DNA of 64,000 nucleotides from Vulcanimicrobiota bacterium (GCA_963714015.1 OY970223.1:352001-416000); one strand, 5' to 3'. Numbered from the stretch's first letter, positions 37,549-64,000 are shown. The notes: a model not told the origin generated them from the letters alone. Numbers and translations are program-made.

Positions 37549-37560
37549 GCGAGGATTTCG

Positions 37561-43054: not shown

Positions 43055-43065
43055 GGAGTACGATC

Positions 43066-44392
43066 ATGTCAGGAATTATCGACGGCAAACCCAAGGCGCC
43101 CGAATCACCGGCCGTTGCAACGCCGCTGGCTGCCGGCGGACTGAAAGGAAAAGTCACCGGCGTAACGCGCATGAGCTCGCGCGCCGGATTCATCGCGATC
43201 GCCGCGCTGGCCGTAATCGTCTTCGCGATCTTTTACGGCGTCACGTCCAATACCGCACACTCGAATTCGAACCGCGTTGCGGCGGCGGAGCCGACACCGC
43301 AAGCAATCTCGACGGACGTGCCGATTATCGACGACATCCCGGGCGCCAACGCCGGAGCAGCGCCGGCCGATCCTCGCGGGAACGGCTCGCGCGACAACGA
43401 ACCGCACCGGCCGGCAAGGGGACAATCGCCGCAACAGGAGCAGGCCGAACAAGCGCAGCAGGCCGCGCAGGCTCAGCAAACCGGGCAACAGCAACCGGCT
43501 GGGCAAAACCAGGCTCCGCCCCAATTGCAAAGTGCGCCGCAAGTGCAAGCGGCTGCACAGATTCAGAATGCGGCGGCCATGGCGCAAGCGATGCTTCCGC
43601 AGCAGCCTACAGCGGCCGAAATGCGCTCGCAGCAAGCCGCAGAGCTGGCAATGGTGAAACGGTCGCAGCAGGATCAAGTCGCAGAGGTCGAGCGCAACGC
43701 ACGGCAGTCGTCAATCCTGATCGGCGGCGCCGCATCGAATGCAGCGCCGGCGACTGCGTCCACTCCCGCAAGCTCCCAGACGCAAGATGCATCACCGTAC
43801 GTCGTGCAAGAGGGCTCCGTCATTCCGGCAACGCTGCTGACCGGGCTCAATTCCGATTTGCCGGGAACGGTGATTGCGATGGTCAATCACGACGTCTATG
43901 ACTCTCAGACCGGGAAATACCGGTTGATTCCAGCCGGCTCCAAGCTCGTCGGACGCTTCGAATCGCAAGTCGTCCAGGGACAGAGCCGCGTGATGGTCGG
44001 GTGGAACCGGATCCTTTATCCGAATGGAACGTCGGTCGACATCAGCGGCGCCGAAGGTGCCGATGCGGCCGGCTACTCCGGCTTCACCGGAAAAGTCGAC
44101 AAGCACACGAATATTTTCAATACCATCTTGAGCAGCATTATCGGCATCGGCACCGCGATCGTCTCGCAACCGCGCGTCGTCATCGCCGGGCCCGTCGGCG
44201 GAGCCGTGGTCATGCAGCCCTCAGTCGGACAGCAAGCGGCGACTCAAGCCGGGCAGCAGGCTTCAACAGCAGATCTCGCAATCGAACAACGCGAGCGGCC
44301 AGCAGCGTCCGACGATCGAGGTACGACCCGGGTACATCTTCAACATCTTGGTGAACCACGATCTCGTCCTGGCGGCACCGTACGAAAATTGA
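43066..44392 (+). CDS. trbI: TrbI (VirB10), frameshift near 44265
   Basis: GSVIPATLLTGLNSDLPG, DAAGYSG..GKVDKH; true end RPTIEVRPGYIFNILVNHDLVLAAPYEN* lies in the shifted frame. Confidence 0.88.
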
Positions 44393-44403
44393 ATGCTCCA
44401 CAG

Positions 44404-44958
44404 ATGCGCCGAATCGGCCGGAGCGGCGCGCTCGTTCTGGCGATTGCCGCGCTAGCCGACGGCATGATGGTTGGAGCGCATGCCCTGGGCCTGCGCCTCA
44501 ACACGACGCCGAGCATGCCGATGGGGATCTATCGCGTGCAGCCGGCTGGAGGCGCACAACTGCAACGGGGGACAATCGTTGCAATCTGTCCGTCCAGACG
44601 CGCACTGGCGGTCGCGATTCCGCGCCGCTACTTGATGCCGGGACACTGCGCCGGGAACGTCGAGCCTTTACTGAAACACGTCGCCGCCGTTGCCGGAGAT
44701 CGCGTAGAGGTGTCCGACGCCGGCGTCGTGGTTAACGGTACGCCGCTGCCGAACAGCGTTCGTCTGCAAAGCGACTGCGCGGGACGTTCGCTTCCGCGAA
44801 TTCCGTCCGGGCGCTACGTCATTCCCAACGGCGAGGTTTGGCTTTATGCGCCGGTGGCGCGCAGTTGGGATTCCCGCTATTTCGGTCCCACGCCGGCCGC
44901 GAACGTCGTCGGCATAGCGACGTCTATTCTAACGATAAGCCGGACAGCAACTTGCTAA
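44404..44958 (+). CDS. traF: Conjugative transfer signal peptidase TraF (S26, pilin maturation)
   Basis: NTTPSMPMGIY, LLKHVAAVAGD and SWDSRYFGP. Confidence 0.88.
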   Translation: MRRIGRSGALVLAIAALADGMMVGAHALGLRLNTTPSMPMGIYRVQPAGGAQLQRGTIVAICPSRRALAVAIPRRYLMPGHCAGNVEPLLKHVAAVAGDRVEVSDAGVVVNGTPLPNSVRLQSDCAGRSLPRIPSGRYVIPNGEVWLYAPVARSWDSRYFGPTPAANVVGIATSILTISRTATC

Positions 44959-45001: not shown

Positions 45002-45384
45002 GTTTACGGGGCTGTCTTTTCAATGACGAAGGCCGGTTCAATCAAGATCCTTTAGTCCTTCAAAAGCTCCGGCGATGCCCACTACCCGCTTGCAGGGCAA
45101 TCCGGCGGCGTCTACGGGCTGGGAGCGGTCTTCGCCGTTACATTGAACGGTGAGGAGCACGTCGTCATAGTTTTTCGGGAAAGAACGGCGACAGTGCGTC
45201 TTCATTCGATATCCCGATCATCGTGAAAGGCGTCTTATACGGCGTAACCTACGCCGGCGGTAAGTACGGAAAGGGTATGCTCTACAGCCTTACGACGAAC
45301 GGCGTAGAACATATCTTACATGCCTTCGGAAACGATTCCGATGGTGCGTATCCGGTCGGCTTGCGCAATGTTAATGGGCGCTAA
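45002..45384 (+). pseudogene. Remnant of a GloVer/TIGR03803-type tandem-repeat protein
   Basis: YGAVFSMTKAGSIKIL*SF...GVLYGVTYAGGKYGKGMLYSLTTNGVEHILHAFGNDSDGAYP; no start, in-frame TAG, apparent internal deletion and a frameshift. Confidence 0.7.
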
Positions 45385-45391
45385 GGCTCTC

Positions 45392-47660
45392 TTAGGCAGC
45401 CGCGGCATCCACGTCGGCCGCGCCGTTCAGCAATTCCGCGAGCTCGTTCAGAACTGCCTCGACGATCGGATGATCGGAGCCCAGTTCGTTTTCGTAAATC
45501 TCCAGGGCGCGGCGATGCAGGTTGGCGGCTTCGGCATGGCGGTTCGTATCCCGCAAGAGACTTCGCAAGCGCGTTGAGATTTGCTGCGACGTGCGGATCC
45601 CGTTCTTCTTTCGAGCGTTCCGCTATGGCCAAACCCAGCCGAAGAAGCTTTTCCGAGTCGAGGAATGCCGCGCGCTTAGCGAGGTAGTTGCCGCAAGCGT
45701 TTGCCAGTCGCGCGCCCGGCGCGAACCCGCTCCCGGCATCGAGTGAAGCGAGCGCCGCGCGTCCGTGCGGTAACAGCCGTTCACACAAACGCCAGGTCGC
45801 AAAGTCGACCGGCGGAAACGCAGATTCGACGGCGCCGACTGCGCTTTGAATCCACGGCTGCGGATCGCTGCCTGCAAACCTGCGAGCCGCCTGCTGAACG
45901 AGCGGATGCATCCGGTAGCTGCGCGTCTCCGGTGAAAAGACGAGCAGCGAAAAACGGTGGAGCGCGCCGAGCGCGTCATCGGTGTGGGCCGCGCTGGCGA
46001 TGCAGGATCGCAAATCCAGCGCCGGCGTTTGGGTTCCCAGGCCCGGCGCAAGACTGCCTGCATAAATTTCCGGCGGTTGCACGAAGAGTTCTTCGGCAAT
46101 CGCATCCGGCGCGAAAAACGACGAGAGTACCAGCAATGCCGCGGCGCCGGGAGCCTCTTCTTCGGCCCGCACGATCGCCTCGCAGAACGTGGCCAAAACG
46201 GCTTGCTGGTAGTCGGCTCCGCGCGGAGCGATTGCCAGATGATCGCCGATACGACCCAGGTACCGGCGGGCGGTCACGTTCGGCGTCGCGCGCAAGTATG
46301 CCGCGGCGTGCGCGACGGCAAGTGGAAAACATTCGAGCCGGCGAGCAATCTCTTCGGCTTCGGCCGCGCCGATGTCGGCGCGTCCAATCTCGCGACACAA
46401 ATAATTTACCGTCTCTTCGACACGCCACGTGTCCAACCAGATCGGACAGACGTCGCCGCTCCAGGCGGAGTATCGTGAGGTCACGATAACATGCGCGCCG
46501 GAAGCGGCCCATTCGCGCAGGAGCCTATCGTCGTGAACGTTATCGTAGATCAGCAGCGCCGGTTTGCCGAACGTATCTAATTCGTTTGCGATCACTTGTG
46601 CGGCAGCGGCTCGGCGATCGCCGGCTTTTTCCAGGTCCGGAACGATCTGCGAACCCAGGCGGACGAGTCCTTCGATGATGCCGGCTTCGTCCTCGGCATT
46701 AAGGGACCAAATAACGCTATAACGATCGCGATTGCGCCGCGCGTATTCACGAGCGATCGCGGATTTTCCGATTCCGCCTAGTCCGTGAACGACGGCAATC
46801 TTGCCTTGATTCCATAACGCATGTTCGATGGCGCTCAGTTCGTCCTCACGGCCGGTGAAACTCGGCGTGATGCGAACGGCGTCCGTTCCCACGATCGACT
46901 CCGGCCGCTGCCGGGGCGCGGCGCCCTGCAGTTCGTCCGCCGATGCGGCGCGGCGATATTCAGCGGTGGTTTCGGCCATGGGAGAAACGCCGAGCTCTTC
47001 TTCGAGGCGTTTTGCGAATTCCTGATACGTCGAGAGCGCGCCCGCCCGATCGCCGCTCGCGTGACGCAGCGCAATGAGCGCACGGATCCCGTCCTCGCGC
47101 CAGGGATCCACGGCGAGCAATTTTTTCGTGTACGCAATTGCTTCGCCGAAGTTACCGCGTTCGCGGTTTACGGAGACGAGGTTGAGCAGCAGCTCGATCT
47201 GACGCTCGCGGAAGCGATCGCGATGCTCCGAAAGCCACTCGTCCTCGAAGCCTTCAAGCAGTTCGCCCCGATACAAGGCAACCGCATCGGCAGCCGTCGA
47301 CGGTTCGGCGCTGCACTTGCGGAACGCCGTGAGGTCGCACCATGCCGGCGCGTTGGGGTTCCACCGAACGGTCCGTTTGTCCGAAAGTATCCAGGGCGCG
47401 TCCGCGGGCGCCGGGGGTAGCGCGTCGTTGACTAAGTAGTAGAGGTGGCGGCGCAAATCGGCGCGGGCGTCGCTCTCCGTGTGGTCGGGCCAGAGGGCGA
47501 AGGCGACCGCGTCGCGGGAGAGCGCCGTATCGGAATGGACGAGCAAGTAAGCCAGGAGGGACAAGGCGCGCTGCGGTGCCTTGAACTTCAAGGGCGCATT
47601 CCCGTCGCTCAGATGAGCCCGGCCAAAAAGATGGATCCGGACGTTTGGATAGTCGATCAA
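45392..47660 (-). CDS. SARP/BTAD activator + NB-ARC + TPR protein (frameshift near the C-terminus)
   Basis: LLAYL...ALWPD, LYRGELLEG, DPWRE (BTAD); GLGGIGKS; last TPR (HRRALEIYENELGSDHP) in the shifted frame ends at TAA 45392. Confidence 0.85.
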
Positions 47661-47766: not shown

Positions 47767-50599
47767 TCATCCGGCGCGCGCCTCGCGCCGAAGTCCGTGA
47801 AAGGCTTGCCATACCGTGGCAATCAGCCCGTCCTCGGCCGCCATGGGAATGCCGATGCGGTTGAAATGCATATGGAGCAAGCTGGCGCAAAGCTCGTCCG
47901 AATCGACGGCGAGGCGCCCCTCTCTTCTTTTCGCCATTCCGGAGGATCGGTCAGCATCCCGCGAATTCGCCGGACGCGAGGCCATTGAACGTTACGGGCC
48001 GCGCGCGCGATTTCCCGATTGCGCTCCATCCAACGATCGCCGTCAAAATGTTCGAACCATTGCTGGAGGAAAGCGCCGGCGAAAAGGAGCGACGCGGTGA
48101 CGCGCGACTCCCAAGTCAACGCGGGAGCGGAAGCGATAAACTCCAGCGCACGTCCGCTGTCGACGTGAAAGAGTTGCTCTGCGAGCGGCATCGCAGCCGC
48201 GCCGCCGTAGCGTTCCAGCTCCGGGATGTACGTATCCAACGCGTAGCGCGGTATCAGACCGCGACCGACCAAGGCCGTCAAAGCGCCGGCGAGCCCTGCC
48301 AGCAACGCTTTGCCATCGCCCGGCGTGTGGAATCGAATGCGCAGATGTGGTTGGGGGTCGGCATAGCGCAGAAAGAACCAACGGTCGATGGAGGCTCCGT
48401 TCAAAGACGCAAACAGCAGCGGAATCGATCGGATCAGCCCATCGATCTCCGATGCCGGGCAGTAAAGTTTCGCAAACGCCCACTCACTTCCCGGAGCAAA
48501 GGATTCCGCCGGGCCCGTTTCGGTGAACGCGGCGCTGCGGGCGGGGCGCGGCGCGGCCTGCGGCGCAATACCGGCGACGAACTCGTGCAAATAGCGCTCG
48601 CCGTCCTTAGCGAGCCAGAGGTGATCGAAGTCGGGAAACATCTCTTCCAACCGCAGCTTGGACCCGATTGGATAGCCGTCGTTGCCTGAACCCATTTGAT
48701 CGCGAATCAATTCAACCGATACGGGCGAGTCGAGATCCAAAAGCAGGCTCGAGATCCCGTTCCACGAGATAGACCCATCGCGGCACGTTCCAGCTTTCGC
48801 GCCAGTGCTGCAGGAACCGGTTCAAATCGTCTTTATGCGCGAACAGTTCTTCTCTCGTGAGCGTCCATACGGCCGGAGCGAGCACGAGCCTTTCATAGCG
48901 GACGCGCGGAGTGAACGGCATTTGAGCGGCGAAACCCCATGACCACAAGCGCGGAAGAACGTGATCTTGTTTTCCGATCATCGAAAGCAGCCGCATGTGG
49001 GGCGGCCCGAAGTAGGTCACCTGCAGCATGTAACTTTCTTTAATGAGCAGCCTGCGTTTGAGCGTGCGCGAATATGCGACGAATCGCGTACCTTCCAGGC
49101 CAATCAGAATATCGCGCGGCTCGATGCGGACGACACCGGCGGGCAATCGCTCGCGCCGGCCGGCCACGGCATAGCCGCTCGCAGGCACTTGCAGCAAACC
49201 GGCATAGTGCTGATCGTGCGGCGTGAATACGAGTTCGACCGGAAGCGGCGCATTGGGATCGGCGTCCGAGGACTCTTGAAGTGCGCCCGCGTCGATGTCG
49301 AGCGCTTCGGCAAACCGGTGGACCGTTTTATACGTGCCGTCCGTGGCCAGTCCGTGAACGGGACGAATCAGATAATTTCCCTCATCGAGATCCGCCCGAT
49401 CCTTCGCCGCGATTTGAAAACCGATCTCGCAGCCGTTCGTGCACGATGAACTCTCGGGCTGCAATCCGAGAGGCTGCAGATCTTGCCGCTTCAGCACGGC
49501 CTCTCGGCATCCGTCACGCAGTGCGCGGGCGATCAGGCGGGCTCGCAGATCGTCCTTTACTGCATCCGGCGCATCGGGCAGGTCCATCGGATCGTCCGGT
49601 GCTCCGATTCCGGAATCGGGGTCGACGAGTTCGAGCAGCGGTATGCGCCTGGAGTCGCCTTCGTAGCGCTCCATGAATTTGGACCGATATTTGGCGAGTA
49701 CCCGGGGACGCGCATTTGCAGTCATCAATGAAGCAAGAACGCTTGCGTCGGAGATCACTCGTTCCCCGAGCGCTCCTTCAAATGACTGAATCATGTTGAC
49801 TTGCGTGCCGGCCGGAACGCGGGCAGCGAAAATTTCAGTTGCGGCTTGCGGCGCTCGTTCGGGCGGTTCGCAGCCGGAAGGCCGCGTAAAAATCAGACAC
49901 CCGATATCGAGCAGCTTGTTTGTAGAGCTGTTCGGCGGCAGCCGGCGGCATTTGCAGCCTGTCGCACAAGGCGGTGCGCAGATCGCGCAGCGGCCGGTCG
50001 ATCGACGCGATCCGCAATATCTCCTCGAGCTGAGCCGACCAGCGAACGTTGAGCGGTTCGTAGTGCAGAATAACCGGATCGGCCGTATCCAAGCCTCGAC
50101 GCAGCCGCTCGGGGTGCCGTATGTGCAGCCGGTCGCCCCGCAAGACCAGCAAATCATTGGCGACGACCGGCAGATCTTCGCGTAACGTCCGATCGCTTTC
50201 ACTTGCCGCCAGTGCTGCATGCGTTTGGGCCGGATCGGTCGCCACGAATAGTTCGGGCGCCCGCGACGAAAGCTGCAACGTGGACGCGGGTCCTTGCTGC
50301 ACAACACCCGTGCCGGCAAACAGGCCGAACGGCGTGCTGCGGGTCGCCATCCGAAGCGCATAGGCGAGGGCCTTCAGCGGCGCGCGTTTCTTCTTTGCGG
50401 CGCCGCCGCGGCTCCACCTTTTGAGGCTTTCATGCAAGCTCGGCGACGCCAGAGCGATCGCCGCATCGAACAGTCCGGACTCGCGCAGCAGATCGCGCGT
50501 TGCCTCAAGCGGATCCGCCGCAGCGAAAATGTCGCGCGCAACGCGTGCCGGGAACATCGGAACCCGTCCGGTCAGCAGCACGATCCGGTTCTTGCGCAT
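47767..50599 (-). CDS. lanB: Full-length lantibiotic dehydratase (glutamylation + elimination domains), 3 frameshifts
   Basis: YALRMATRSTPFGLFAG; FTPRVRYERLVLAPAVW; HEFV; WFFLRYADPQPHLRIRF; YIPELERYGG; SLLHMHFNRIG. Confidence 0.88.
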
Positions 50600-50926
50600 C
50601 TAAGGACCGACCACCGTCACGCTTCCGCGCATGTACGGATGCGGTTCACAGTAATAGTCGTACCGGCCGGCCTTGTGAAAGGTCGTCGTCCAGGACTTGT
50701 GCCAGTCGATCGGTCCCGAATCGATCGATTCCGCCGCTTGCGCGGTCACGGTGTGCGCTTGTTCGTCCTCGTTGACGAACGTCACCGAATCACCGACGTG
50801 AACGCGCAGGTTTTCGGGATGGTAACTATAGTCCGCGATGTGTACGACGTAATGGTGGTGGTTCGACGCACCCGGAGCGGCCGCTAGGAGCAGCACCGCG
50901 GCGATGGACGAAAGAAGTATTTTCAC
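50600..50926 (-). CDS. Cupredoxin (amicyanin/plastocyanin-like blue copper protein)
   Basis: Signal peptide; AHTV and YYCEPHPYM type-1 Cu ligands. Confidence 0.9.
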   Translation of the reverse strand: MKILLSSIAAVLLLAAAPGASNHHHYVVHIADYSYHPENLRVHVGDSVTFVNEDEQAHTVTAQAAESIDSGPIDWHKSWTTTFHKAGRYDYYCEPHPYMRGSVTVVGP

Positions 50927-50947
50927 GAACGATCCCTGCCTTTTCTT

Positions 50948-52645
50948 TTAAAGAGAGAACACGTAGAGTTTGCCGCCTCGAGGCACGTGCGCGGTCAATT
51001 GCGCAGCAGGCCCGCCGAAAGCCGCGAGTCCGCCGCCATATCCGCAGTAAACGGCCACGTACTGTTTACCGTCGACCATATACGTTACGGGCGGCGCAAC
51101 GATTCCCGATTGGAGCTGCTGATGCCAGAGCACCTTACCGGTCTTTGCATCGAAGGCGTAGAAACGGCCGCCCGCATTTCCGCTAAATACCAGGCCGCTC
51201 GCTGTGTCGAGCACGCCGCCGGTCCAAGGATAATCGCTGGGGTGCGTCCACACTTTTCGCCCGGTCAGCGTGTCGATGGCGCTCAATTCGCCGAAACCGT
51301 GCGCACCGGGTTCTGCAACGGTCAGGGACACTTCGCCGAAATAGCCGAACCGTTCGCGTAAATTCCCCGTTCCGGTTACTTGCGCGCACAGGTGCAATAT
51401 CGGAACGTACGCAAGTTTCGTCACCGGACTGTAGGCCATCGGATACCAGTTCTTGCCGCCGCCCGAACTAGGGCAGTCCAGCACCGTCTTGCCGACTTGC
51501 GGGTATTTTTGCGGATCCAGTATTGCCTTGCCTTGCGAGTCGTATCCGAGAATCGTGTTGTTCTTTACAAAGGGCCGAGCGTAAATGAGTTTGCCGCTTC
51601 GGCGATCGATGGCGAAGAAGTATCCGTTGCGATCCGCGTGCACGATTGCCGGAATACGGCGTCCGCCGCGCTGCAGTGTAACGAGCACCAGTTCGTTGAC
51701 GCCGTCGTAATCCCAAGAATCGTGCGGCGTATATTGGTAATACCACTTCATCGCACCGTCCGACGGGTCGAGTGCGAGCAGCGAATCCGTAAAGAGGTTC
51801 GCGCCGGGACGCTTTCCGCCGAACCACGGACCCGGATTTCCGGTTCCCCAAAACAACGTGTTGGTCTGCGGATCGTATGAACCGGTAACCCACGTGTCGC
51901 CGCCGCCGCGTTTGTACGCACCAGCGGGCCAAGTATTTCCTCCGGGTTCGCCGGGCGACGGAACGGTCCATCGCTTCCATAACCGCCGGCCCGTCTGCGC
52001 GTCGAATGCCGCTATGAACCCACGCGCGCCGAATTCGCCTCCGGCCACTCCGGTGATAACGCGTCCGCCTACGACGAGCGGCGCGCCGGTGATGGCGTGA
52101 TCTTTTCCGACCGCGACGACTTGACGGCTCCAGACGAGGCGACCGCTTTGCGCGTCGAGCGCGATCAAACGATCGTCGATCGTTCCGAGGAAAACATCGT
52201 TTCCATAGAGTGCTACACCGCGGTTGACGACGTCGCAGCAAACCGCGCGCAGCGCTTGCATGGAGATGTTCGGCACGTATTTCCAGAGTACGCGTCCGCC
52301 GGCTGCGTCCAGCGCGATCACGGTATCCATCGGCGTGGTGATGAACATCGTGCTCCCGTTGACCACAGGCGGAGATTCGTGCCCCTGCGGCAAGCCGGTT
52401 ACGTACGTGAATGCGACGTGAAGCGATCGAACGTTGGAGGGAGTGATCCGAGTGAACGGCGCGTACGCGCGGCTGTCGTAAGAACGGCGATACATCAGCC
52501 ATCCGTCGTCGCCGCCGGCCTCGAGAAGGCGAGCGTTGGTAACACTTGGATAGTCTTGATTCGCGCGGCCGTGGAGAGCCAACGGTCCCCAGAACAGTAA
52601 GACCAGAAAACCGCAGCAGAGCAGGAAGCGCCCTATCACTTTCAA
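50948..52645 (-). CDS. PQQ-dependent alcohol dehydrogenase, lanthanide-type motif (ExaF/PedH/XoxF-like)
   Basis: Signal peptide; CCDVVNRG vicinal Cys, GGEFG, WGTGNP and HDSWDYDGVNE; TTG start overlaps the upstream TGA. Confidence 0.9.
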   Translation of the reverse strand: MKVIGRFLLCCGFLVLLFWGPLALHGRANQDYPSVTNARLLEAGGDDGWLMYRRSYDSRAYAPFTRITPSNVRSLHVAFTYVTGLPQGHESPPVVNGSTMFITTPMDTVIALDAAGGRVLWKYVPNISMQALRAVCCDVVNRGVALYGNDVFLGTIDDRLIALDAQSGRLVWSRQVVAVGKDHAITGAPLVVGGRVITGVAGGEFGARGFIAAFDAQTGRRLWKRWTVPSPGEPGGNTWPAGAYKRGGGDTWVTGSYDPQTNTLFWGTGNPGPWFGGKRPGANLFTDSLLALDPSDGAMKWYYQYTPHDSWDYDGVNELVLVTLQRGGRRIPAIVHADRNGYFFAIDRRSGKLIYARPFVKNNTILGYDSQGKAILDPQKYPQVGKTVLDCPSSGGGKNWYPMAYSPVTKLAYVPILHLCAQVTGTGNLRERFGYFGEVSLTVAEPGAHGFGELSAIDTLTGRKVWTHPSDYPWTGGVLDTASGLVFSGNAGGRFYAFDAKTGKVLWHQQLQSGIVAPPVTYMVDGKQYVAVYCGYGGGLAAFGGPAAQLTAHVPRGGKLYVFSL

Positions 52646-54894
52646 CGCACCGTCCCCCGGCCGCTGCGAATTTCGTAACGGATCGACCACGTGCGCGCAA
52701 TCGGGACTCCGAGGAATTGAACGGATCCGCTCGTCGTGGGGGAAGCGGCAGCGAACGCCGGAGACGTAAACCTTCCGGCATCCTCGTTGAACAAGTTTTG
52801 CACCGAAAACACGATCGCTCCGTTATTGACGTTGAAACGAATGCCGGCCGAAGTACTACTGTACGCCGGCAAGTGCGCTGCGTTATTTGCGTCGACGAAA
52901 GCCGTTCCTACTCCAACGGTTACCGCCGGAGTGTGGTATGAGAATATCGCGCTCGCGCGATGCAGCGGCACGTTCCAGATTTGCGAGCCTGGGATCAGCG
53001 TTGAATTCTCGCCCGCAGGGAGCGCCGGCACGCCGGCAGCCGTCGCCGCATACGTCTCATAAGCCACGGCAAGATTGAAATTAGCGCCTAACGGCGAGTT
53101 GACGGAGGCGTACCATTCCTTGTCGACGCGCAGCGGCACGGTTACGTAGTGCATGAGATACAAATCGCTTGCGGTCAGCGGGCCACCGCCGCACAAGTAA
53201 GCGTATTGCTCGTTGAGTGCTTGCAAATAGCCGGACGGCAATGCGGCGCCCCCGGCCTGGGCGGCGACAACTAGCGCATCCTTCGTCGCGTCGTAAAATC
53301 CGCCGAGCGTGACGTTCGCCCTTCGCAGGCGTCGCGTTATCGCAGCCGTGACTCCCGCGCTGTGCGGGGGGTCGGGCGTGACCTGGCTCGGGCCGGAGGC
53401 GTAAGCGGCGTGCGAGCTGCAGTCGAAATCGGCAGCTCCGGGCACGGCAAGGCGGAGCGCCTGCGCGTAATACGTTTCGATGGTCTGTGTTTGCGCGGTA
53501 TATGCGTCCCACTTTAAGCGCGTAGCGTTACTCCAAGCCGAACCTTCGATGGATGCATTGACGTGCGCAGCCGCGAATGCTCCGGTTCTCGCGCCGAACT
53601 GACCGTCCCGGTGACCGACGACGAACGGCCGGTGCGATTGTAACTCATTGAGGCCGTCGTTCCGGAGCTTTTCGAGACCGTTTCAAACGGCTGTGCGTAC
53701 GCATCGGCTATCGTTTCGGTGTTGCTGAGCGAGAGCGTTGCGCTGTTTTGCCCGAAGCGCCGCGTAAAATTCAACATGTCGTAGCGTCCAGAGTATCCGA
53801 ACCCGGTGTAGTCGGAATCGGCGTTCCTTCCGCCAGCGCATCGATGTCGTCATCGTCCGCCGAACCGGCATACGCGACGTGCAGCGCAGTCCAATCGTCA
53901 CGTCCGCGCGTTTGCGCCGCGCGAATATAGCCGTCAAGCATTCGCGTCCGCTCGGTGTTGCCCGGGCCCGAACCTTCCGCAATCCCGCCGGGATCGACCA
54001 GCGAGAGTTGTGCGTTACGCCGGTCACTGCCCAGTGCCACTGCACTCACGCGAGCGCCGCCCAACCGGAATTCCACGTCCGCAGAGGCGGCCAGCTCGTG
54101 TTCGTTCGCCGAATGATCGTAGGCCGCTCCGCTTTGATCGAAAAACGTTTGGCCCGCAAGGGCGCCTTCGCCCAAGCGATCGGAGAGCACGAAGGCATAG
54201 TTCGGCCCCGTCAGCGTTCCTTTCAGCGCTTCATCGCCTTGCGATCCGCTCAGGATCGAGAGCTGCTGCTGCGGCGTGCCCGTCGGGCTTTGAAGATGAA
54301 GGTTCGGCGTAATCGAGCCGTCATCGGCTTGATCCGGAGTGAACGATTCGACGAGATCGCTTGGAACCGTAAAACGCGATTCCTGGCCTGTAGGGAGCGT
54401 GAGCGGCGTGCCGTTCAGTTCCAACGGTCCGGATCCGCCTTCGGATGCAGAGCGGTAATTCGGCACGAAATTCAGCGAATCGGTCACGCTGCCGCTGATG
54501 ATTGCGGCGACGCTCGCGGTGTTCGTCTGCAGCGCCCGAGCGGGAGCTTGGCGACGACCGAATCAATCGTTCGCAGCCCGAACGTCAAATCGAGCGTCGG
54601 ACTGTCGGCGACTTGTACCGGCGATGCGCCGTCTTTGCGCCGTGCAAAGATCGGAGTGCCTGCGACGGTTTCGACAGTCGCCCGCCCGTCGGATCCCGTG
54701 ACGCCGATATATCGCTCGGCGTCGCGGTCCTTCGCGTAAATCGACGCCGCGGAAACGGGGTGGCCCGTCGCGTCGCGCACGAAGACTTGCACCGTCATCA
54801 GTTGCGGACTTTGAACCTGGCCTGCCGATGCGGTCCCGGCAAGAGAAGCTGCGAGAGCAACGGCGCTCAGCACGTAACAAAGAAGCCTAGCCAT
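52642..54894 (-). CDS. TonB-dependent-receptor-like outer membrane protein (several frameshifts)
   Basis: Signal peptide; carboxypeptidase-regulatory-like N-domain (VRDATGHPVSAASI); beta-strand-rich body; C-terminal SVQNLFN...PIARTWSIRY. Confidence 0.65.
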
Positions 54895-55631
54895 AGCAAG
54901 CGTTTTCGTTACGGCGATATCCCCAAATAGCCAGTGCACCGAAGAGCGTTGCGTAAATCGCCAACGTCACGAATGCCGTCACGGTCGAGGGGTCTCCGCC
55001 AACGGCCGACCACACCAGCTCGCCGTATTGACGGGTCGGGCTGAACGGTGAAATCGCAGCGACTACCGGCGGCAGAAACTGCGGCGGAAGCCACAGCCCG
55101 CCGATGAACGCAAGCGGCAAGTAGGTGAGATCGGTAATGGGCACCGACGTCTTCGGGCTGGTCCAGTAGCCGATTGAAAGGCCCATGACGCCGAAAACGC
55201 CTCCGCCAATCAGTAGTGCAACGGCAAACCGGAGCCAAGCGACGGCGGATAACGTAACGTGTCCGAGCAGAATCGCGCAAGCAATGACCAGCGCCGCCGT
55301 CGCGGTCGCGAAGATCAATGCGCAGACGAGGCGCGATGCGACACGCACGCCGGCGCCCAGCGGCAGCGTCCGAAGATATGAATCCAGACGGACGCGCGAT
55401 CGTGCGCGATTCCGACGCCGAATTGAAAGAGCGCAACGCCGATTACCGCGAACACAGCGTACGATGCCAGCGCGTAACGAGCAGATCCGCGTTCTTCGAG
55501 TACGCCAATCCGAAGAATACGTAAAGCATCGTCGGAAGGGCAAGCGACGGAACGGAGTACGCCGGCACCCGCAGCAGTTCCAAAGTAGAAAATCGTGTAT
55601 CGAGCCAAAAGTTTCTGAGCGTCTCACTCAT
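54887..55631 (-). CDS. ABC-2 exporter permease (frameshifted)
   Basis: ELLRVPAYSVPSLALPTMLYVFFG...LRTLP...YLPLAFIGGLWLP...LP. Confidence 0.8.
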
Positions 55632-56478
55632 GATGCCCTCCAACCATTCTCAAGAAGACGTCCTCGAGCGAAGGCGCGGCGATTTCGAGATCGCGATAAG
55701 GGATATTTCTCTAGAACAATTCGCGCACGACCGCGTCGGGGTCGGAAGTAACGATGCTGTACCGGTTTCCGGCGATCGTCGCATTGGCGATTGGCGCCGG
55801 AACGGTATCGCTGGTGAAGGAAACTTTGCGAGCGCCGGACTGCGCGGATCGCGGCGATCGGCGCGTCGTCAAGACGCGTCCACAGGACATGACTATCGCG
55901 CGCGAAGCCAACGCTTCGGCTTCCTGCAGGTAATGCGTCGTGAGCAGAACGGTTGTTCGGCTTGCGACGATTCGGAAATCGCATGCCACACGCGCGCGTC
56001 TTCTACGTCGAACTGGTTGTGGGCCGTCCAAGACGACGAGCTGCGTTTCCGGTAATGCGAGCGCCGAACTGAGCGCCGCTGCTCGCGCCGCTTAGGCCGC
56101 AACTTGGCGGCGCGCGAGTTTCGAAAGACGAAACGCTCGAGCAGCGCGCCGAGCGGCACAGGATTCCGCGCAGCGTCCAAACGTAGCCGGCGACTCGCAG
56201 ACGTCATGGCGGCCGGCAGTCGTTGTTTTGCTGCGTAACCGATCAGACGCCGCGTGCGCATGGAAAGAGGCCGCTCTCCAAAGACGCGCACGTACCGCCG
56301 TCGAACGCCAGCTCCAGCACGCTGATCGTCGTTGTCTTACCGGCGCCGTTAGGTCCAGAAGCGCTACGCGTCTCCTGCTTTAATGTCGAACGAGACGTCC
56401 TTTACGGCGGCGGCTCCGCCGTAGGATTTGTGCAAATTGCGCACGGCGATGACTGTTTCAGTTTTGAGCGATATACAC
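55628..56478 (-). CDS. ABC exporter ATP-binding subunit (many indels)
   Basis: VRNLHKSYG...GPNGAGKTT; VLLTTHYLQEAEALA; SLEDVFL. Confidence 0.75.
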
Positions 56479-56479
56479 G

Positions 56480-56998
56480 GGATAGGTCCCCTTTCAGATT
56501 TAGGCGCGCGCTTTGCGCAAGCACGATCTCGTTATAGGTGACGTGCGCGACGATCGCCGCGCCCACCGAACGGTGAGCAGCGCAGCAGACGAAGACTAAG
56601 CCGTCGCCGGATGGTGCGACGCGCGCGGATTGACGACGCGTGCATCACGCAAATCCGGCGGTCGTCAGCAGCAGGGCAGCTGCGGACATGGCCGCGCAGT
56701 TCACGCCAGCCTCTCCAGATGATCTCTTCGGACGCCGCAACGACCGCAAGCGCCGTTCCGGTCAAGGCAAACTTTCGAAGCGTTGCGGCGTCCGCAAAGT
56801 ATGGAGGCTTCGGAAGCCGCCGAACAACACGGCGTAGAGCGCCGCGCCCATCAGAGCGCCGAGCAACAGCAGCGGCAGATCCGAAGACATCCGTGCGGTT
56901 ACGCTTGCGTCGATCGCCAAAATTGCGGCGGCGACGATCGCCTGCAGCACGAATCCGGCAAGTACGACGTTGCTCGTTGCGGCAGCATTACCGAACAC
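56480..56998 (-). CDS. CPBP (Abi/CAAX) intramembrane metalloprotease (many indels; ends approximate)
   Basis: Hydrophobic segments; EEIIWRG and AHVTYN motifs. Confidence 0.65.
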
Positions 56999-57803
56999 AT
57001 GCTACGCTGTAGATGATGCCTTCGTTGACGCGTCGTTGTTGAGCATCGCGTCGATGTCTTTTTCGTAAAAACGCCGAGCGGAAGCGCGCCAAGCCCAGCG
57101 ATATCGCAGTCAGCAGAGCGTTTTGCGCAACATGGCCGGCCTCGAGGATCGTAAACGGTACGCGCGCAGGCGGTATTTGAGCGGCAGCGCCAAAACGCCG
57201 CACTTATCAGCAGAGTGATGGACGAGGTGTCAACGGCCTCCGGATAGATGCACGCTTCGGCCAGCTTGCGTAGGCGATCTCGGAGATTCGCACGAGACGG
57301 TGATCGGGCGAATCGTAGAAGTAATGCCGCACGGCAGGCCGTCGACGCGATGCACCGCGACGTAGTTGTCCAGCGGGAACAGCCGCCGCCGGAAGGCGCC
57401 GTGCGGAGAAGCTGCTGGCCGCACCGTTCTTGAGTTTGACGCGCTTGGTCACGCCGTAGGCCGAGACAAGATCGTCGCAACTTGCACGAGCGTTATCGGC
57501 TTGGAGAGAATGATTGACTTGACCTGCGCCGCTGCAAGAGGTCGCCGAGCGTCGTGTCCCCGATTCGGGCGCCGGCAGATCCACGGAGGAAGATGCCGGA
57601 TTCGCTTCGAGGACCGCAGGGTGCTAATCAGCGCGTTCGGATTGGTCTGGATCAAGTATGCATTGGTTTGACGCAACGCGCGCGAACGGTAGAGGCTGGA
57701 GGCCTCGTGATAGCACTCGGCCGGATCGTCAAACAGTCTTCTGCGCGACGTCTTCACTGCCGTAAACCAGTTCGAGTGCGTTGATCGTTCTGTATTTCGT
57801 CAT
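56988..57803 (-). CDS. SagB/ThcOx-type FMN azoline dehydrogenase (many indels)
   Basis: YHEAS N-terminus; PS.G..FPL-like segment; ILEAGHVAQNALLTAISLGL. Confidence 0.75.
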
Positions 57804-57815: not shown

Positions 57816-59155
57816 TTAAGGAAAGGGATGCGGAAAATGGTTGATCTCGTGGGGGTCGAGCCGCCGTCCCAGTAAACCTTCGGACACGCCGCCGGTGTAG
57901 ATGCGATCGATTCCAAGGAAACGGTGGGCGTGCTCGGAGTCTATCTGGCACAGCTCAGGACAGAACGCTCGCACAACGCGCAGACCGAGTTGCCGCAAGT
58001 CGGGGGCGGTGACGTCTACGGCGTAGACTTCCATTCCGCGCTGTCCCAAGCGGTTTACGATCGCGTCAATCTGCTCGCACACGGAGGGCCCGCTTACCGG
58101 CGGGACTTCCCTCACGTGCCGGCTCTGCGTCGCCGAGTCCATAAACGCCGACTCTTCGCCATGCGAGCCAAAAGCGTGCAGCGCCACATGGTCTTCGAAA
58201 TCGCGGACTTGCGAAAAATCGCCGTCGGGCTCGGTCCAATCAGGATTGAGAAAGCGCATTTGCCGCGCCCAGGCATATGTCTGGAATGCTTCGCGCACCG
58301 CTTTGCCGGCAGCGTCGATCATGGTTCGCGCGCTCGCGGCGCCGGTCGCGAGTTGCACATAGCCGGTTTCGTCGCGCACGAGCGCCATCGCACTGGGCAC
58401 GTCGCAGAAAGGCGACAAGTCTACGACGGTGTAGCGCAACCCCTTGACGTTATAGTACGTATCGTGATTGAGTTCCATCTCGGCAACTCCGGTACAATCG
58501 ACGATCGGCATCGAGAGCCGCGTGTACCACATCAGCAAAAACGCGTCGCGTTCGACCAGTTCGTATAAGCCCGACAGCAGCGCCTCTTCAAACGTGGGCG
58601 CGCAGGCAACGCCGGAACTCGTGCTGTAGACTACGCGCGGCTCTTCCGGCCGGCGATGTTCGGGCAGATAGCAAAACGCCGAAGGGATCCAAACGGCCTC
58701 ACCCGATCGCAGGTTGGTTCCACGCACCCAGTGCGCCGGCGTGTCGTCGTCGAAGGCGACGAACTTGTCGGTCGTTTCGTATTGCGCTTTCGAAAAGAAG
58801 TTCAAATGCGCGGTAGGCACATGCGGGCCTTCCAGCTCGCGCGCCGTCGAAAAGTGGAGTCTTCGAGCGGAACGTACGAGAGCGAGTACCGCTCTGCCGC
58901 CTCTCCAAGCGCAGCGGCCAACGCCCGGTCGCGGTGCGGATGAATTCCGCCGCTATACAGCGGAACCGAGGCGCCGATGGTCAACTGCGAATCCGCCGCC
59001 AAGCACGTGACGTGCCACATGCGCGGATCGCTGGGCTGGGCCATCATGTGAAAGCGCAGATGCGCGATGCCGGTATACGGCGAGAGCAATTTCTTGAGGA
59101 CCGGCAGCGATTGCTCGAGCGGGGTCACGCCGCTGGGCCGCTTCAACGTATCCAT
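57816..59155 (-). CDS. YcaO cyclodehydratase, azoline-forming (frameshift near 58850)
   Basis: LSPYTGI, ALGEAAERYS, STSSGVAC, LYELVERDAF and C-terminal PHPFP. Confidence 0.92.
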
Positions 59156-59157
59156 GA

Positions 59158-60104
59158 TTAGCTCTCGTACCAGGGCGACGGGGCGGCAACGTTCACGCGG
59201 CCGGAACATTCTGGACAGCGCGGTACGCGTAAGACGTCGTGCGATGAGATCCCGCGATCGCCGAGCGGCGCAAGCGAAATCAGCGTTCCGACCAGCGCTG
59301 GATCGGATGCACCGATCCAGCGCAACGCGTACGTGACGGCGAGGCCGGCAGCCATCATATCAATGGGCATGCATTGCTCGAACGCCGCCTCGGCTTCGTC
59401 GAGCTCAGATACTCCGCGGGGTACTTCACATTGGAAGCGCGCCGCAGTTGAAAGCAGGCGTAACACGCGGTTTCGCCCGGAACGAACAGCGGCCCGATTG
59501 CGGAGAACCGTCCATCGTATGGAAGAATCTGCAGCCACGGCTGCTTTTTGAGGATCGCGGCCTTGTTGATTTCCCGCAGGCGGCTCAACTCGCCCGTCGC
59601 CGGAGCGACGATTGCGAGATCGACTTCCTCGTCGTCAAAACTGGAGAAACTCGAGGTTTGCGCGCCCTCTATTCCGGAGCACAAGAGTCCCCGGAGAACC
59701 TCGCTCGCAGCATTGCTGGACCCTATGACGGAGATGCGCGCGCTTGCGAGGCGATCGCGGACGATTTCGGTCGAGCTTGCACCCCCGATCGATGAGAAGA
59801 AGACGGAAGTGCGCGTCAGCTTATCCTTTTCTGCGGGAAGCGTTCCGTCCATGAGCAGATCGTAGCGTTCCAGCAAACCGATCGCGGCATTGACGACCTG
59901 CGCATCGCTTCCGGAAATCGAAGCGATGTCTTCGACGCTGTGCCGCCCGTCCAGCACGGGCAGCAACTTTGGAAGGATCGCGCCGGCAGCGCGGCCCTTG
60001 AGGCAGATGACCGAGTCGCCGTAGTGGAAGATTACTTGGTCGTCATGCTTGTAGACGCGATACCAGGGTTTGAAGGCTTTGGTTGGCGCAATAGGATCCG
60101 TCAC
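59158..60104 (-). CDS. TOMM leader-binding (RRE + ThiF/E1-like) protein (frameshift near 59405)
   Basis: LDGRHSVEDI RRE; IGPLFVPGETACYAC; VLRVPRCPEC; GTG start after GAGGAG. Confidence 0.88.
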
Positions 60105-60153
60105 GTTATAACTCCTCGGTGAAACGGGGTATAAGAGAGCTGACACCCGGGCC

Positions 60154-60218: not shown

Positions 60219-60356
60219 CTAGAGAAGCGACACTTTGCAGGTTGTGGACGACGTGCACGTGCTGCTGGCAGCCAGACCCGTTGCATCTTCGTCACCGCCG
60301 ATTTCGGTTACGCTTACGTCGAGCAGTTGGTCGATGTTCTCGGTGATTTGTTCCAT
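60219..60356 (-). CDS. RiPP precursor peptide (45 aa)
   Basis: AAGGAG RBS; MEQITENIDQLLDVSVTEIGGDEDATGLAA-SSTCTSSTTCKVSLL, an acidic leader plus Ser/Thr/Cys core directly upstream of the E1 and YcaO genes. Confidence 0.9.
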   Translation of the reverse strand: MEQITENIDQLLDVSVTEIGGDEDATGLAASSTCTSSTTCKVSLL

Positions 60357-60426: not shown

Positions 60427-61075
60427 TTATTGCGACAATTCCCACTGGTAGTTGATGGGAATGTCGGTGTACGTGTGCACGATTTCATGCACGTCGAAAT
60501 GCGTAGCGCTAAAAGCGCCGTTGAGAAAAGCGAGTCGTCCGTTGACCTTGACGTCTTCGCCCACGGTGAATCCATGCGCGATCACGATGTTAGAGTACGT
60601 TCCCGATACCGTCAGGCTGGCGCGATCGCCGGCATTCTGCGAGACGACTTTGACCGGCACGTTTTTCCACTCGGTTTGCGAAACTTTGACCGGCACGACT
60701 GCGCTCCAGACGGCATGCGCAGGCTCTAAGGTTGGCGATATTCGTTCGCAGCACGAGCGGGATCGTGTTGTAAATCGTTACGATGTCGGACGGCGTTCCG
60801 GGCGATACGATCTCGCCGTCGGCGCTTACGGAAGCGTCGAGCGTATTGGTGGTTCCGTCCGTTCGGCGATAGGAAACCACTGCGCGATTCGAACCGGACT
60901 CGGCGACATGCAGAGGACTGGAGAGTGTCGTCGCTCCTCCGTCGGGCGAAACGTGCCCGACATAGTGGAAGTTCAGTGCGACCGAGTCGCCGGCGGCGTC
61001 TACGGGCGGACGCAGCGCTTGCGGCGCGGCGGTTCCGAGAAGAGCCGCGGCCAAAAGTACGGGAGAGATTCTCAT
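60427..61075 (-). CDS. Secreted hypothetical protein, paralog 3 (frameshift near 60725)
   Basis: AGGAG RBS, MRISPVLLAAALLG signal; continues into ORF 60427-60696. Confidence 0.65.
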
Positions 61076-61082
61076 GATGACG

Positions 61083-61771
61083 CTACTCCTGTTCCGGCGC
61101 GGTGCGCGCCATATGCCACTCCAGCGCATCGTTTGCGTCTGAGGTCCGGCGTTAACGAGTTCACTGGCGGCAAAATCGCAGCGATCGAATCCGGCCGGCG
61201 CGACGCGCAGCGCGAATTGGGCGGTGACGTCGATTGGAACGGTATATCCGGCGTAGGACGCAGTAAGCGTCTGCGAACCGGTCCCCTGAATGACCGCTCC
61301 GCCCGACCCGGCCGAGACGATCTTCAGTTGCACGGGCAGATAGCCAATCTGCCCGGAGTCACCGGTCTCGATCGGAACCTGTCCGTTCCACGTCGCACCC
61401 GGCTGCAGCAAAGGAGGCGCGCTCGCAAGCAGACCCGCAACCGTGTTGAATGAATCGATGCGGTTGCCGGCATCGCCCGAATCGATCGTCCCGTCGGCGG
61501 CGAGTTTGCCTGCCGCACTGGCGTTGTCGGTCGACGATTTTCCGGCCGTGACGATCCGAACCGAGCGCGCGTTTCCCACAGTAATCGTCGCGGTGCGATC
61601 GAAGACTACGCGCTGACCGTTCCAAAACGATCCGTCAAACTGCAGGTCGTACGAAATCGAGACTCCCGGCGAAGACGGTAAAAGTATGTGTGGGGCGCCG
61701 GCGACCGAACCTGCCGCGGTTGCGAGCAACCCGGCGAGCGTTGCGCTCGCGCCTCGCGTGAGGGCGTTCAT
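61083..61771 (-). CDS. Secreted hypothetical protein, paralog 2
   Basis: ATGA overlap with the upstream gene; signal peptide; likely ends ...WHMARTAPEQE* after an indel near 61120. Confidence 0.65.
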
Positions 61772-62778: not shown

Positions 62779-64000
62779 CTAAATGCCGTGGGCGCGGGCG
62801 CACTCGGCGGCATCTTGCCGCGTGCGGCAGTGCAGTTTGCGCAGAATGGATGCAACGTGGGCGTTCACCGTATAGGTGCTGCGGCCGAGATCGCGGGCGA
62901 TTTTCGCGTTCGTCGAGCCGCGCGCAATCTCGCGCAAGATGGTAACTTCCGTTTTGGTCAGCGCGGAAAGCGCCGAGACGGCAGATTCTAATCCGGGCAT
63001 CGGCAGCGCCGTCAAGAGGTTTGCGATGCCGCCCAGACGGGACTCACGTAAGAGCGAAACCGCGGGTTCCATGCTCTCTCCGGCCTCCACGTGAAGGTAT
63101 GCCGCGCGGCTCGCCTTCATTACCGCTCGTTCCACCGAGCCCAAATCGCGGCCAACCTGCTCGACGGGACTAAGGATCGCGTTGGCGCGCGGAAGTTGAT
63201 GCATGATGATGCAGGCCAAGGTACAGTAGGCGTGCGCGAATGCAAATCGCCGGCGCTCGTCGGACCTTCCTCGCAGCCCGCGTTGCGTCAAAGCGAGCGC
63301 ATGCGAAATGGCTTCGTCGGCATCTTCACGCTGTCCGCAGGCCGACGCATAGAGCGCAATCTCCGCCCAGCGAAGCCCGCGCCGTCCATCGCTGATCTGC
63401 GACTGCGCGGTGCCCCACACGCAATCCAATGCGCCGCGGAAACGGCCCAACCACGCGGCGCGCATCGCATCCGCCGACGCCATCGCAGAAGAACTGAGCT
63501 CGCCGTGTCCCGGATGCTCGAGTATTCTGCTGCGCAGTTCGTCCAGATCGTCGCCCTCTCCGAACTCCGTTCGCAGCGCATAAGTACCGGCGAGGGCCGA
63601 TGCGGCAAGAAACACGTCTCCCGCCTTCTCCGCGCACTCGATCATCCTCTCAAGTTCCGCGAGCGCTTTCGCGGTGTCGTATCCGAAGCCGAGCCAGATC
63701 GAATACCGTACGCTGTGGCAGCGCGCCGCCAGCGCGTACAAGTCGTGCAGTTTCGCCAAATCGATGGCCTTTGACGAAAGCGCCATGGCTTGCTGTGATT
63801 CGCCGGCCGCGTAGGCGACGAAACTGGCCTGATGGTACAAGGTCGCTCGAACGGGAGTCGAATCGGAGCGGTTTGCGAGCTGGAGGGCCTGCTCAGCGTA
63901 GTCTTTCGCTTCGGCAAGACGCCCCGTTATGGCGCAGCCCGTGGCGATCGTTCCCATCATGAGCGCATCGCCGTCCGCCACGAGCGCTTTGGCGCTGGTC
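62779..64000 (-). CDS. LuxR-family regulator with TPR-like sensor region (5' part outside window)
   Basis: LTKTEVTILREIARGSTNAKIARDLGRSTYTVNAHVASILRKL LuxR HTH. Confidence 0.88.
   Translation of the reverse strand, partial: TSAKALVADGDALMMGTIATGCAITGRLAEAKDYAEQALQLANRSDSTPVRATLYHQASFVAYAAGESQQAMALSSKAIDLAKLHDLYALAARCHSVRYSIWLGFGYDTAKALAELERMIECAEKAGDVFLAASALAGTYALRTEFGEGDDLDELRSRILEHPGHGELSSSAMASADAMRAAWLGRFRGALDCVWGTAQSQISDGRRGLRWAEIALYASACGQREDADEAISHALALTQRGLRGRSDERRRFAFAHAYCTLACIIMHQLPRANAILSPVEQVGRDLGSVERAVMKASRAAYLHVEAGESMEPAVSLLRESRLGGIANLLTALPMPGLESAVSALSALTKTEVTILREIARGSTNAKIARDLGRSTYTVNAHVASILRKLHCRTRQDAAECARAHGI

Follow-up and report, generated by a model that had tools for sequence, protein, structure and literature searches.

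A putative lanthanide-type PQQ alcohol dehydrogenase in the predicted azole-peptide operon of a Vulcanimicrobiota bacterium

Among the clusters for ribosomally synthesized and post-translationally modified peptides (RiPPs), those of microcin B17 (mcb) and goadsporin combine a precursor with a Cys/Ser/Thr-rich core, a C protein, a YcaO protein, an FMN dehydrogenase and an ABC-2-type export/immunity pair, to which the goadsporin cluster adds a LanB-type dehydratase, and to our knowledge nearly all described RiPP tailoring is the work of cytoplasmic enzymes. Here we analyse a 64,000-nucleotide stretch of DNA from a Vulcanimicrobiota bacterium (GCA_963714015.1 OY970223.1:352001-416000; the whole stretch is called the window below), in which the genes for an outer-membrane barrel, a pyrroloquinoline quinone (PQQ) alcohol dehydrogenase and a cupredoxin (positions 50,600 to 54,894) appear to form part of an operon of this kind. 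The operon has the precursor, C protein, YcaO, FMN dehydrogenase and ABC-2 pair of both described systems as well as the LanB of goadsporin, but differs from them by a TonB-receptor-like barrel, a secreted protein of ~200 aa and the quinoprotein with its electron carrier.

These additional components have described counterparts of their own. Amicyanin is a cupredoxin that takes electrons from methylamine dehydrogenase, and methanobactin-type peptides are RiPP chalkophores. An extra Asp (D-x-D) is the rule for the lanthanide subgroup (XoxF/ExaF/PedH) of PQQ dehydrogenases (10.1101/2020.02.25.964783), a receptor of the Oar subclass is required for the secretion of PopC and not for uptake (PMC6434023), and XoxF systems within nonribosomal peptide synthetase/polyketide synthase (NRPS/PKS) clusters of Acidobacteria that contain TonB-dependent transporters are proposed to be metallophore loci (PMC10875860). 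For the locus described here we propose, as the best reading although one that we hold tentatively and at something short of an even chance, a periplasmic oxidation that is linked to the exported peptide.

The dehydrogenase, its putative carrier and their place in the operon

The minus-strand gene array that contains the dehydrogenase spans 45.4-64.0 kb of the window, combines azole-peptide genes (YcaO/C/SagB) with LanB and adjoins a type IV secretion island (Table 1). The operon would extend over ~16 kb and code for a linear azole peptide with dehydroamino acids, the dehydrogenase and cupredoxin region being its distal part. The junctions are as the preliminary description of this DNA had observed, and even tighter: the TAG of the permease gene shares bases with the ATG of the barrel gene at 54894 (ATGGCTAG), the TGA of the barrel gene shares bases with an in-frame TTG at 52645 (TTGA), and the TAG of the cupredoxin gene directly precedes the LanB ATG at 50599. 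The junctions thus comprise overlaps of 4 nt and 8 nt and a 0-nt spacer, with 21 nt between dehydrogenase and cupredoxin, and no terminator was found at any gene junction in a scan that gave 14 terminator-like sites against 21.3 expected from shuffles. Gene overlaps or spacers of 7-21 nt were counted in favour of the dehydrogenase belonging to the RiPP operon and not being a chance neighbour, a placement that is supported also by its recurrence in related clusters (see below).

The open reading frame of the dehydrogenase (50948-52690, minus strand) has no frame break and codes for 565-580 aa depending on the start, of which the TTG at 52645 is the likelier one, as it yields a clean signal peptide. 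Judged by its score against TIGR03075, the family of PQQ methanol/ethanol dehydrogenases (577.4 bits, cut-off 480.05; Pfam PQQ 2.7e-79), the predicted protein is a genuine methanol/ethanol-type quinoprotein, and the only one of its family in this genome (G000). The vicinal CC and the WDYDG that had been noticed earlier are indeed present ('AVCCDVV', 'SWDYDG'), and the segments AVCCDVV, GVAGGEFG, GTGNPGPW and WDYDG align with the vicinal Cys, GGE, GNP and catalytic Asp segments of 6zcw. The best solved chains are 6zcw and 6zcv, a quinoprotein ethanol dehydrogenase that we take to be PedH (E 3e-117, ~40% identity, WDFDG at the place of WDYDG), followed by the lanthanide methanol dehydrogenase 4mae. 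The extra Asp, two residues past the catalytic one, is found in the window enzyme (WDYDG) and, as WDY/FD[GA], in 12 of 12 close relatives examined, and by this motif the enzyme is predicted to be lanthanide-dependent. It shares with PedH, ExaF and XoxF the passing TIGR03075 score, the vicinal Cys, GGE, GNP, the extra Asp and the signal peptide, and its relatives share with them a class I cytochrome c encoded after the enzyme. In contrast to these enzymes, it is encoded inside a RiPP operon and predicted to be co-transcribed with RiPP genes, its adjacent carrier is a cupredoxin instead of a cytochrome c, and no pqqC was found in the host.

The cupredoxin matches Pfam Copper-bind (1.2e-11), and its best solved relatives are amicyanins (4.9e-15), with which the type-1 copper ligand segments align (AHTV/PHNV and YYCEPHPYM/YHCTPHPFM; His, Cys, His, Met). 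Like amicyanin, it has the His and the Cys-x2-His-x2-Met segments and is encoded beside a periplasmic quinoprotein; unlike amicyanin, its neighbour enzyme would use PQQ and not tryptophan tryptophylquinone (TTQ), and its score lies below the cut-off of the amicyanin equivalog TIGR02657 (56.3 bits against 110.2). No methylamine dehydrogenase gene was adjacent to it in a Pfam scan of the window. The cupredoxin family is widespread in this bacterial family (223 of 300 other genomes), with two further copies in this genome, and a PQQ dehydrogenase neighbour was found in none of the 19 best cupredoxin-homologue loci. A two-domain cupredoxin is encoded ~3-4 kb past the window end (L151:3092-4087, corresponding to G000:C1:419092-420087, minus strand), where a second LuxR/AAA regulator, a NucS-like nuclease and a DNA methylase are also found.

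Recurrence of the dehydrogenase in related clusters

Strong full-length orthologues of the barrel (E <= 1e-80) were found by a profile search in 8 of 400 genomes of the phylum, and 20-kb stretches around them served as neighbourhoods; the other sequences matched by the profile, which at E <= 1e-10 occur in 287 of 401 genomes when G000 is counted, are receptors of ~1100 aa. A scan of metagenome contigs added four loci, giving 12 related loci in total, in 10 of which the DNA after the barrel is visible. The tallies for the dehydrogenase family, the barrel profile and the cupredoxin include genomes flagged as unpublished (e.g. G010, G021, G241, G036 and G270), and the loci that bear the argument all come from genomes without this flag (G376, G330, G290, G227, G094, G144, G354, G237, G024, G040, G019, G017 and G068). 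The related loci are kin, and counts among them overstate independence.

YcaO is encoded in seven of the eight genome loci (two of them distant), a SagB-type gene and an ABC-2 pair are present in most, and L118 has HlyD, ABC and barrel genes with no YcaO in view. A dehydrogenase that is 55-70% identical to that of the window follows the barrel in 5 of the 10 visible loci, directly in L147 and L150 and after a secreted-protein gene in L116, L119 and L120. On its far side lies a RiPP gene in this window, in L147 and L150 (LanB) and in L116 (precursor). The dehydrogenase stop overlaps the LanB start in L147 (ATGA), LanB converges on the dehydrogenase in L150, and in L116 (genome G376) the only precursor gene found (13749-13907, minus strand) lies 85 nt past the dehydrogenase in convergent orientation, the usual place of the precursor being before the C protein. 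LanB adjoins the cluster in four of the five linked loci (L147, L150 and those of G376 and G330) versus none of the five unlinked ones; it was found elsewhere in two of the genomes with unlinked clusters (G354, G237) and not in three others (G227, G094, G144). Precursors similar to that of the window were found in L148, L119, L120 and L116. Ser-rich cores starting with ASS occur in the dehydrogenase-linked clusters (e.g. SSCCCSSSCCCCSSGG, SSCSCSCSCS and SSCCSSSSCCCC), Cys-run cores occur in the unlinked ones (e.g. TCITINCCCCCCCCA), and the cores hold at most one acidic residue. The slot of the cupredoxin is occupied in two of the five linked relatives by a class I cytochrome c (CAACH) after the dehydrogenase (L119, L120) and by no carrier in the other three (L116, L147, L150). 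Of the trio whose co-occurrence with YcaO/LanB clusters had been put forward as a check, the barrel and the dehydrogenase do recur (5 of 10 loci), but the cupredoxin is found, among the related barrel clusters, in the operon of this window only.

A quick maximum-likelihood tree of the dehydrogenase (26 rows) places all rows inside a single group (98% support). Within it, two clades hold the six linked enzymes, one formed by the window, L147 and L150 (98%) and the other by L116, L119 and L120 (92%), six unlinked enzymes form a third group (99%), L125 stands alone, and the branching order among the groups was not resolved. None of 500 label shuffles was as clustered as the observed linkage. The placement of the linked enzymes indicates that the linkage survived divergence to ~56% identity and several rearrangements, and given that co-transcription and the barrel-dehydrogenase order were kept through these changes, the enzyme would be used together with the peptide system.

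What the data support is co-transcription and conservation only, and the chemical steps of the following proposal are all inferred. The peptide would be modified in the cytoplasm and moved by the ABC-2 exporter into the periplasm, where the PQQ dehydrogenase could act on the peptide itself or on an intermediate of the pathway by oxidising an alcohol or aldehyde group. Electrons would pass from the dehydrogenase to the amicyanin-like cupredoxin, or to the class I cytochrome c in relatives, and further to the respiratory chain, and the Oar-type barrel together with the secreted ~200-aa partner may take the product through the outer membrane. As NAD(P)H is not available in the periplasm, a redox step there would need a quinoprotein that passes electrons to a small carrier. 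Pointers toward tailoring are the coupling of the genes, the association with LanB and the Ser-rich subtype, and the content of the slot after the barrel in L123 (10996-15569), where, in place of a dehydrogenase, two B12-binding radical SAM enzymes, a recognised type of RiPP tailoring enzyme, are encoded along with a CAAX-type protease. An oxidation of the peptide by the dehydrogenase/cupredoxin pair was one of the two options raised in the preliminary description and, as a candidate reading, fits the evidence best. The more specific form of the proposal supposes that the lanthanide/PQQ quinoprotein tailors a ribosomal azole/dehydroalanine peptide once this has been exported, such that a side-chain alcohol would be oxidised between ABC export and passage through the Oar-type barrel, with electrons leaving via cytochrome c or cupredoxin; this we regard as possible but doubtful.

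Several observations weigh against a periplasmic oxidation of the peptide. Half of the visible barrel clusters (5 of 10) have no dehydrogenase, and a single origin of the linkage is compatible with the data, in which case the linked loci would not be independent. The unlinked sisters (L124, L126, L005, L032 and L007) are pairs of dehydrogenase and cytochrome c with no YcaO or barrel nearby. The linked enzymes are collinear with their unlinked sister clade, have no insertions or deletions of their own by which the active site might be opened, and carry the same metal and PQQ motifs as their sisters, type I alcohol dehydrogenases have narrow active-site funnels, and no computed link connects the enzyme to the chemistry of the peptide. 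In addition, pqqC was not found in this genome at E <= 0.001 and pqqE gave generic radical-SAM matches only, at a genome completeness of 89.6%, so that PQQ would have to be scavenged from outside. Likewise, pqqC was not found in G330 and G290, and the same search succeeds in G376, a Bradyrhizobium and a metagenome-assembled genome of Eremiobacteraeota, with G402 and G403 as the controls in which it works.

The dehydrogenase might instead belong to an ordinary lanthanide-type alcohol oxidation module, serving energy or detoxification, that became fixed at the 3' end of the operon in one ancestor and travels with the island with no chemical tie to the peptide. The plain cytochrome c pairs in unrelated contexts among the closest unlinked relatives, the missing insertions or deletions and the dispensability of the enzyme in half of the related clusters all favour such a passenger, as does the result that homologues of the barrel, LanB or the cupredoxin are encoded in none of 80 genome loci with dehydrogenase relatives. 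Among solved structures, the closest are broad-substrate ethanol/methanol dehydrogenases, and the redox pair is the only long break-free stretch of the operon, as if it alone were under selection, which is a weak and statistically not significant point (P = 0.09; largest-gap test P = 0.15). However, the gene is translationally coupled to the exporter/barrel genes and to LanB, and the linkage outlasted changes in the position of the LanB, precursor and electron-carrier genes. Moreover, catabolic alcohol dehydrogenase sets usually occur with aldehyde dehydrogenase or sensor genes, whereas the enzyme here lies under the regulators of the cluster. No computation in this study separates tailoring from hitch-hiking, and the orthodox appearance of the enzyme favours the latter, which we consider a serious possibility, if not the outcome that we would expect.

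The barrel and a possible supply of metal or cofactor

The barrel had been called a TonB-dependent receptor, a name that is supported by remote homology to plug-bearing receptors and not by domain matches. Neither Pfam Plug (PF07715) nor the Pfam barrel domain TonB_dep_Rec (PF00593) was matched by the window pieces or by five intact homologues (738-753 aa), even at E <= 1, the locus is absent from the 10 PF00593 matches of this genome, and a weak N-terminal CarboxypepD_reg match (4.4e-4) and a weak TIGR01783 match (0.0035) were obtained. In hhalign, the profile of the family aligns over 673 columns with a 1111-aa Plug + CarboxypepD_reg protein from a related genome (99.6%, E 2.6e-24), and its neighbours in the protein-language-model Atlas (0.97) are Plug + TonB_dep_Rec + CarboxypepD_reg clusters. 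The barrel is thus probably a short, divergent receptor with the architecture of the Oar subclass. With Oar of Myxococcus (PMC6434023) it shares a barrel, a region homologous to the plug and an N-terminal extension of the CarboxypepD_reg type, and it differs in being ~750 aa long instead of ~1060-1100 aa and in not itself matching the Pfam Plug or barrel families. Since Oar serves the secretion of PopC, the window barrel might export as well as import; a position directly after an inner-membrane exporter would suit export and is a further likeness.

Homologues of the secreted ~200-aa protein adjoin the barrel in all eight genome loci. The family has no Pfam or PDB relative and a weak Atlas lead to DUF6263 only, and the invariant columns across nine of its proteins (P, F, G, W, V, G, P) include no Asp, Glu, His or Cys. 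Shared motifs of the family are FDGHFWNG and AGPQTQT (window 60427-61771, minus strand; L119:11198-11860), and its members might serve as a binding partner, as an immunity protein or in the release of the plug.

Given that an exporter, a TonB-receptor-like barrel and a lanthanide-motif enzyme are encoded in one operon and that azole nitrogens can bind copper, the azole peptide might also be a secreted chelator of lanthanide or copper that the barrel re-imports to load the dehydrogenase or the cupredoxin. As a copper chelator, which the preliminary description had entertained, the peptide finds no support, because the cupredoxin is found in this window only and the relatives have cytochrome c or nothing in its place. 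For a lanthanide chelator, also considered earlier, the receptor-like barrel is present, but barrel and secreted partner also occur in G094 and G144 (96% complete), in which neither a PQQ alcohol dehydrogenase (E <= 1e-20) nor pqqC was found. The scarcity of acidic residues makes the cores a poor fit for lanthanide ions, the invariant columns of the secreted partner offer no metal-binding side chain of the four types named above, and the ABC system is of the ABC-2 exporter type, with no binding-protein importer seen in the loci. We therefore regard a metallophore as improbable, and keep it under consideration because of the published Acidobacteria parallel, in which XoxF is found in NRPS/PKS clusters containing TonB transporters (PMC10875860). 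What the window has in common with those clusters is that a quinoprotein with the lanthanide motif is encoded together with a TonB-type receptor among genes for a secondary metabolite. Its product would differ from theirs, and from methanobactin-type chalkophores, in being a ribosomal azole peptide without hard-donor side chains, and its type of receptor, unlike that of putative lanthanophore clusters, occurs also where the genome is without the enzyme.

A related idea is that, in a host unable to make PQQ, the apo-dehydrogenase is supplied with PQQ, or with a lanthanide complex, through the barrel, the adjacency of the peptide genes being secondary. Hantke and Friz reportedly described in 2022 the import of PQQ by a TonB-dependent receptor of E. 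coli, and the failure to find pqqC in G000, G330 and G290, with its detection in the two control genomes, would be in line with such a need. However, the barrel is conserved in azole-peptide clusters with or without the dehydrogenase and is present in two genomes without a detected PQQ alcohol dehydrogenase, and G376 has pqqC together with the linked arrangement, which leaves this scavenging very improbable. As G094 and G144 have the barrel without such an enzyme, the supply of lanthanide or PQQ is unlikely to be its primary role.

Gene array, frame breaks and genomic setting

Table 1. Genes of the peptide array and of the adjoining type IV secretion region, in window positions
Feature	Position	Strand	Evidence
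LuxR-type regulator (TPR + GerE), cluster head	62782..64000, runs past window end	-	Pfam GerE 7.8e-15, TPR_12
Two tandem secreted ~200-aa protein genes	61109-61771, 60427-61075	-	translation; frame breaks; unnamed family
Candidate precursor peptide, 45 aa, core SSTCTSSTTCKVSLL	60219..60356	-	small-ORF scan
Cyclodehydratase partner C protein (leader-binding/E1-like)	59164..60146	-	weak TIGR03882, TIGR03603; break near 59404
YcaO cyclodehydratase	57816..59263	-	Pfam YcaO 3e-56; break near 58863
SagB-type FMN dehydrogenase, badly broken	about 57005..57799	-	tblastn with L119 and L148 proteins
ABC ATPase (broken)	55639-56498	-	NCBIfam DrrA/NodI-like fragments
ABC-2 permease, two breaks (three pieces)	54887-55631	-	Pfam ABC2_membrane
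Oar-subclass TonB-dependent-receptor-like outer-membrane barrel, ~750 aa, three breaks	52642..54894	-	homology to P0003, hhalign, Atlas
PQQ alcohol dehydrogenase, intact, lanthanide-type DYD	50948..52645 (longest start: GTG 52690)	-	
Amicyanin-like type-1 cupredoxin with signal peptide, intact	50600..50926	-	Pfam Copper-bind
Full-length class I LanB (N + C domains), three breaks	47776..50599	-	Pfam Lant_dehydr_N, Lant_dehydr_C
BTAD/AAA (SARP-like) regulator	45381..47660	-	Pfam BTAD 6.7e-21, AAA_16
VirD4, VirB11, TrbC, VirB4, VirB6, VirB8, VirB9, VirB10 + TraF	33834-44958	+	

The gene set for a linear azole peptide (thiazole/oxazole-modified microcin, TOMM) is complete, with YcaO, C protein, SagB and candidate precursor, and its enzymes are all frame-broken as assembled. 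YcaO scores 243 bits against the TIGR03604 cut-off of 219, and the C protein is 39-48% identical, in two frames, to the C proteins of L119 and L148. The SagB region is 31-35% identical, in several frames (tblastn), to nitroreductase-family proteins of the same two loci, and these relatives match Pfam Nitroreductase. LanB has PF04738 in two pieces (1e-27, 5.5e-65) and PF14028 (9.8e-36) and is collinear with the 1055-aa LanB of L150 at 42-53% identity, in frames -1, -2, -3 and -2. Homologues of the LuxR-type regulator also head the clusters of L116 and L119, and a homologue of the BTAD/AAA regulator comes after the cluster in L122.

At least 15 frame breaks, which the preliminary description had not noticed, lie within 14.0 kb of the operon, about 1.1 per kb. 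As assembled, there are four pieces each of the barrel and LanB, three of the permease and two each of YcaO and the C protein, and the SagB, ABC ATPase and secreted-protein genes are frame-broken as well. Elsewhere in this genome, a single contig whose completeness of 89.6% also points to assembly error, rpoC (G000:C1:2063474-2066972) is split between two frames and rpoB (G000:C1:2035484-2038733) is split between frames with two internal TGA codons, and dnaE is whole. Since essential genes cannot be pseudogenes, the assembly contains indel errors throughout, and any 'pseudogene' in this genome thus needs read-level confirmation, for which no public sequencing runs are listed. The four barrel pieces match the intact 738-aa P0003 end to end at 63-76% identity, without an in-frame stop or large deletion, which speaks for recent or artefactual indels and not for long decay. 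We therefore consider it probable that the breaks are an assembly artefact rather than decay. The GC3 frame plot confirms the frame changes and nothing beyond, homopolymers are not evident at the break sites, and long-ORF coverage is too insensitive a measure of assembly quality in this GC-rich genome. A TCGAG-type motif near three of seven break sites was dropped as a candidate, as it occurs 4.2 times per kb genome-wide and is not enriched in the operon. Outside the operon, a molybdopterin oxidoreductase gene (1282-3587, minus strand) and an S41 (PDZ) peptidase gene (15430-16843, minus strand) are frame-split.

Were the frame shifts real, the peptide pathway would be dead in this strain and only the dehydrogenase and the cupredoxin would be functional. 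The break rate of the operon is several-fold above that of rpoB and rpoC (about one each) and dnaE (none), which also counts against the periplasmic oxidation that we favour, and breaks are few in the first 45 kb of the window. Yet rpoB and rpoC are themselves split, the barrel pieces match P0003 throughout, and the break-free stretch is statistically not unusual, and we hold real decay to be rather unlikely.

The type IV secretion genes directly adjoin the peptide operon on the plus strand (33.8-45.0 kb). VirD4 has an in-frame stop at about 35226, and VirB10 reads through into a TraF-like S26 peptidase. Within the window, no tRNA gene was found and no integrase was seen. The YcaO of the cluster was not found in either of two same-genus genomes (0/2), and weak matches only were found in 2 of 40 relatives. 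Given this distribution and the adjoining type IV secretion genes, the gene array looks like the cargo of a conjugative island. In line with the origin of the genome, the Atlas neighbours of the barrel and of the secreted ~200-aa protein come most often from Vulcanimicrobiota (Eremiobacterota), and in the dehydrogenase tree a named metagenome-assembled genome of Eremiobacteraeota groups with a genome of the same family. Elsewhere, the window encodes two neighbouring pro-kumamolisin-type peptidases (5981-10084, plus strand), a GH92 mannosidase fused to a beta-propeller (1178 aa; 20679-24212, minus strand) and an HTH-NB-ARC-TPR (STAND) regulator (28931-31519, plus strand).

No description of a PQQ dehydrogenase in a RiPP cluster was found in full-text searches of a literature set with few subscription journals. 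If the enzyme is independent of the peptide, the locus would represent the spread of a lanthanide-type dehydrogenase by way of a conjugative island and the replacement of its cytochrome partner by a blue copper protein. If the dehydrogenase does act on the exported peptide, it would be the first PQQ-dependent and the first lanthanide-dependent step in RiPP maturation. In either case, the order of exporter, barrel and lanthanide-motif dehydrogenase, kept in six loci of a barely cultured phylum, provides a concrete test case that can be cloned.

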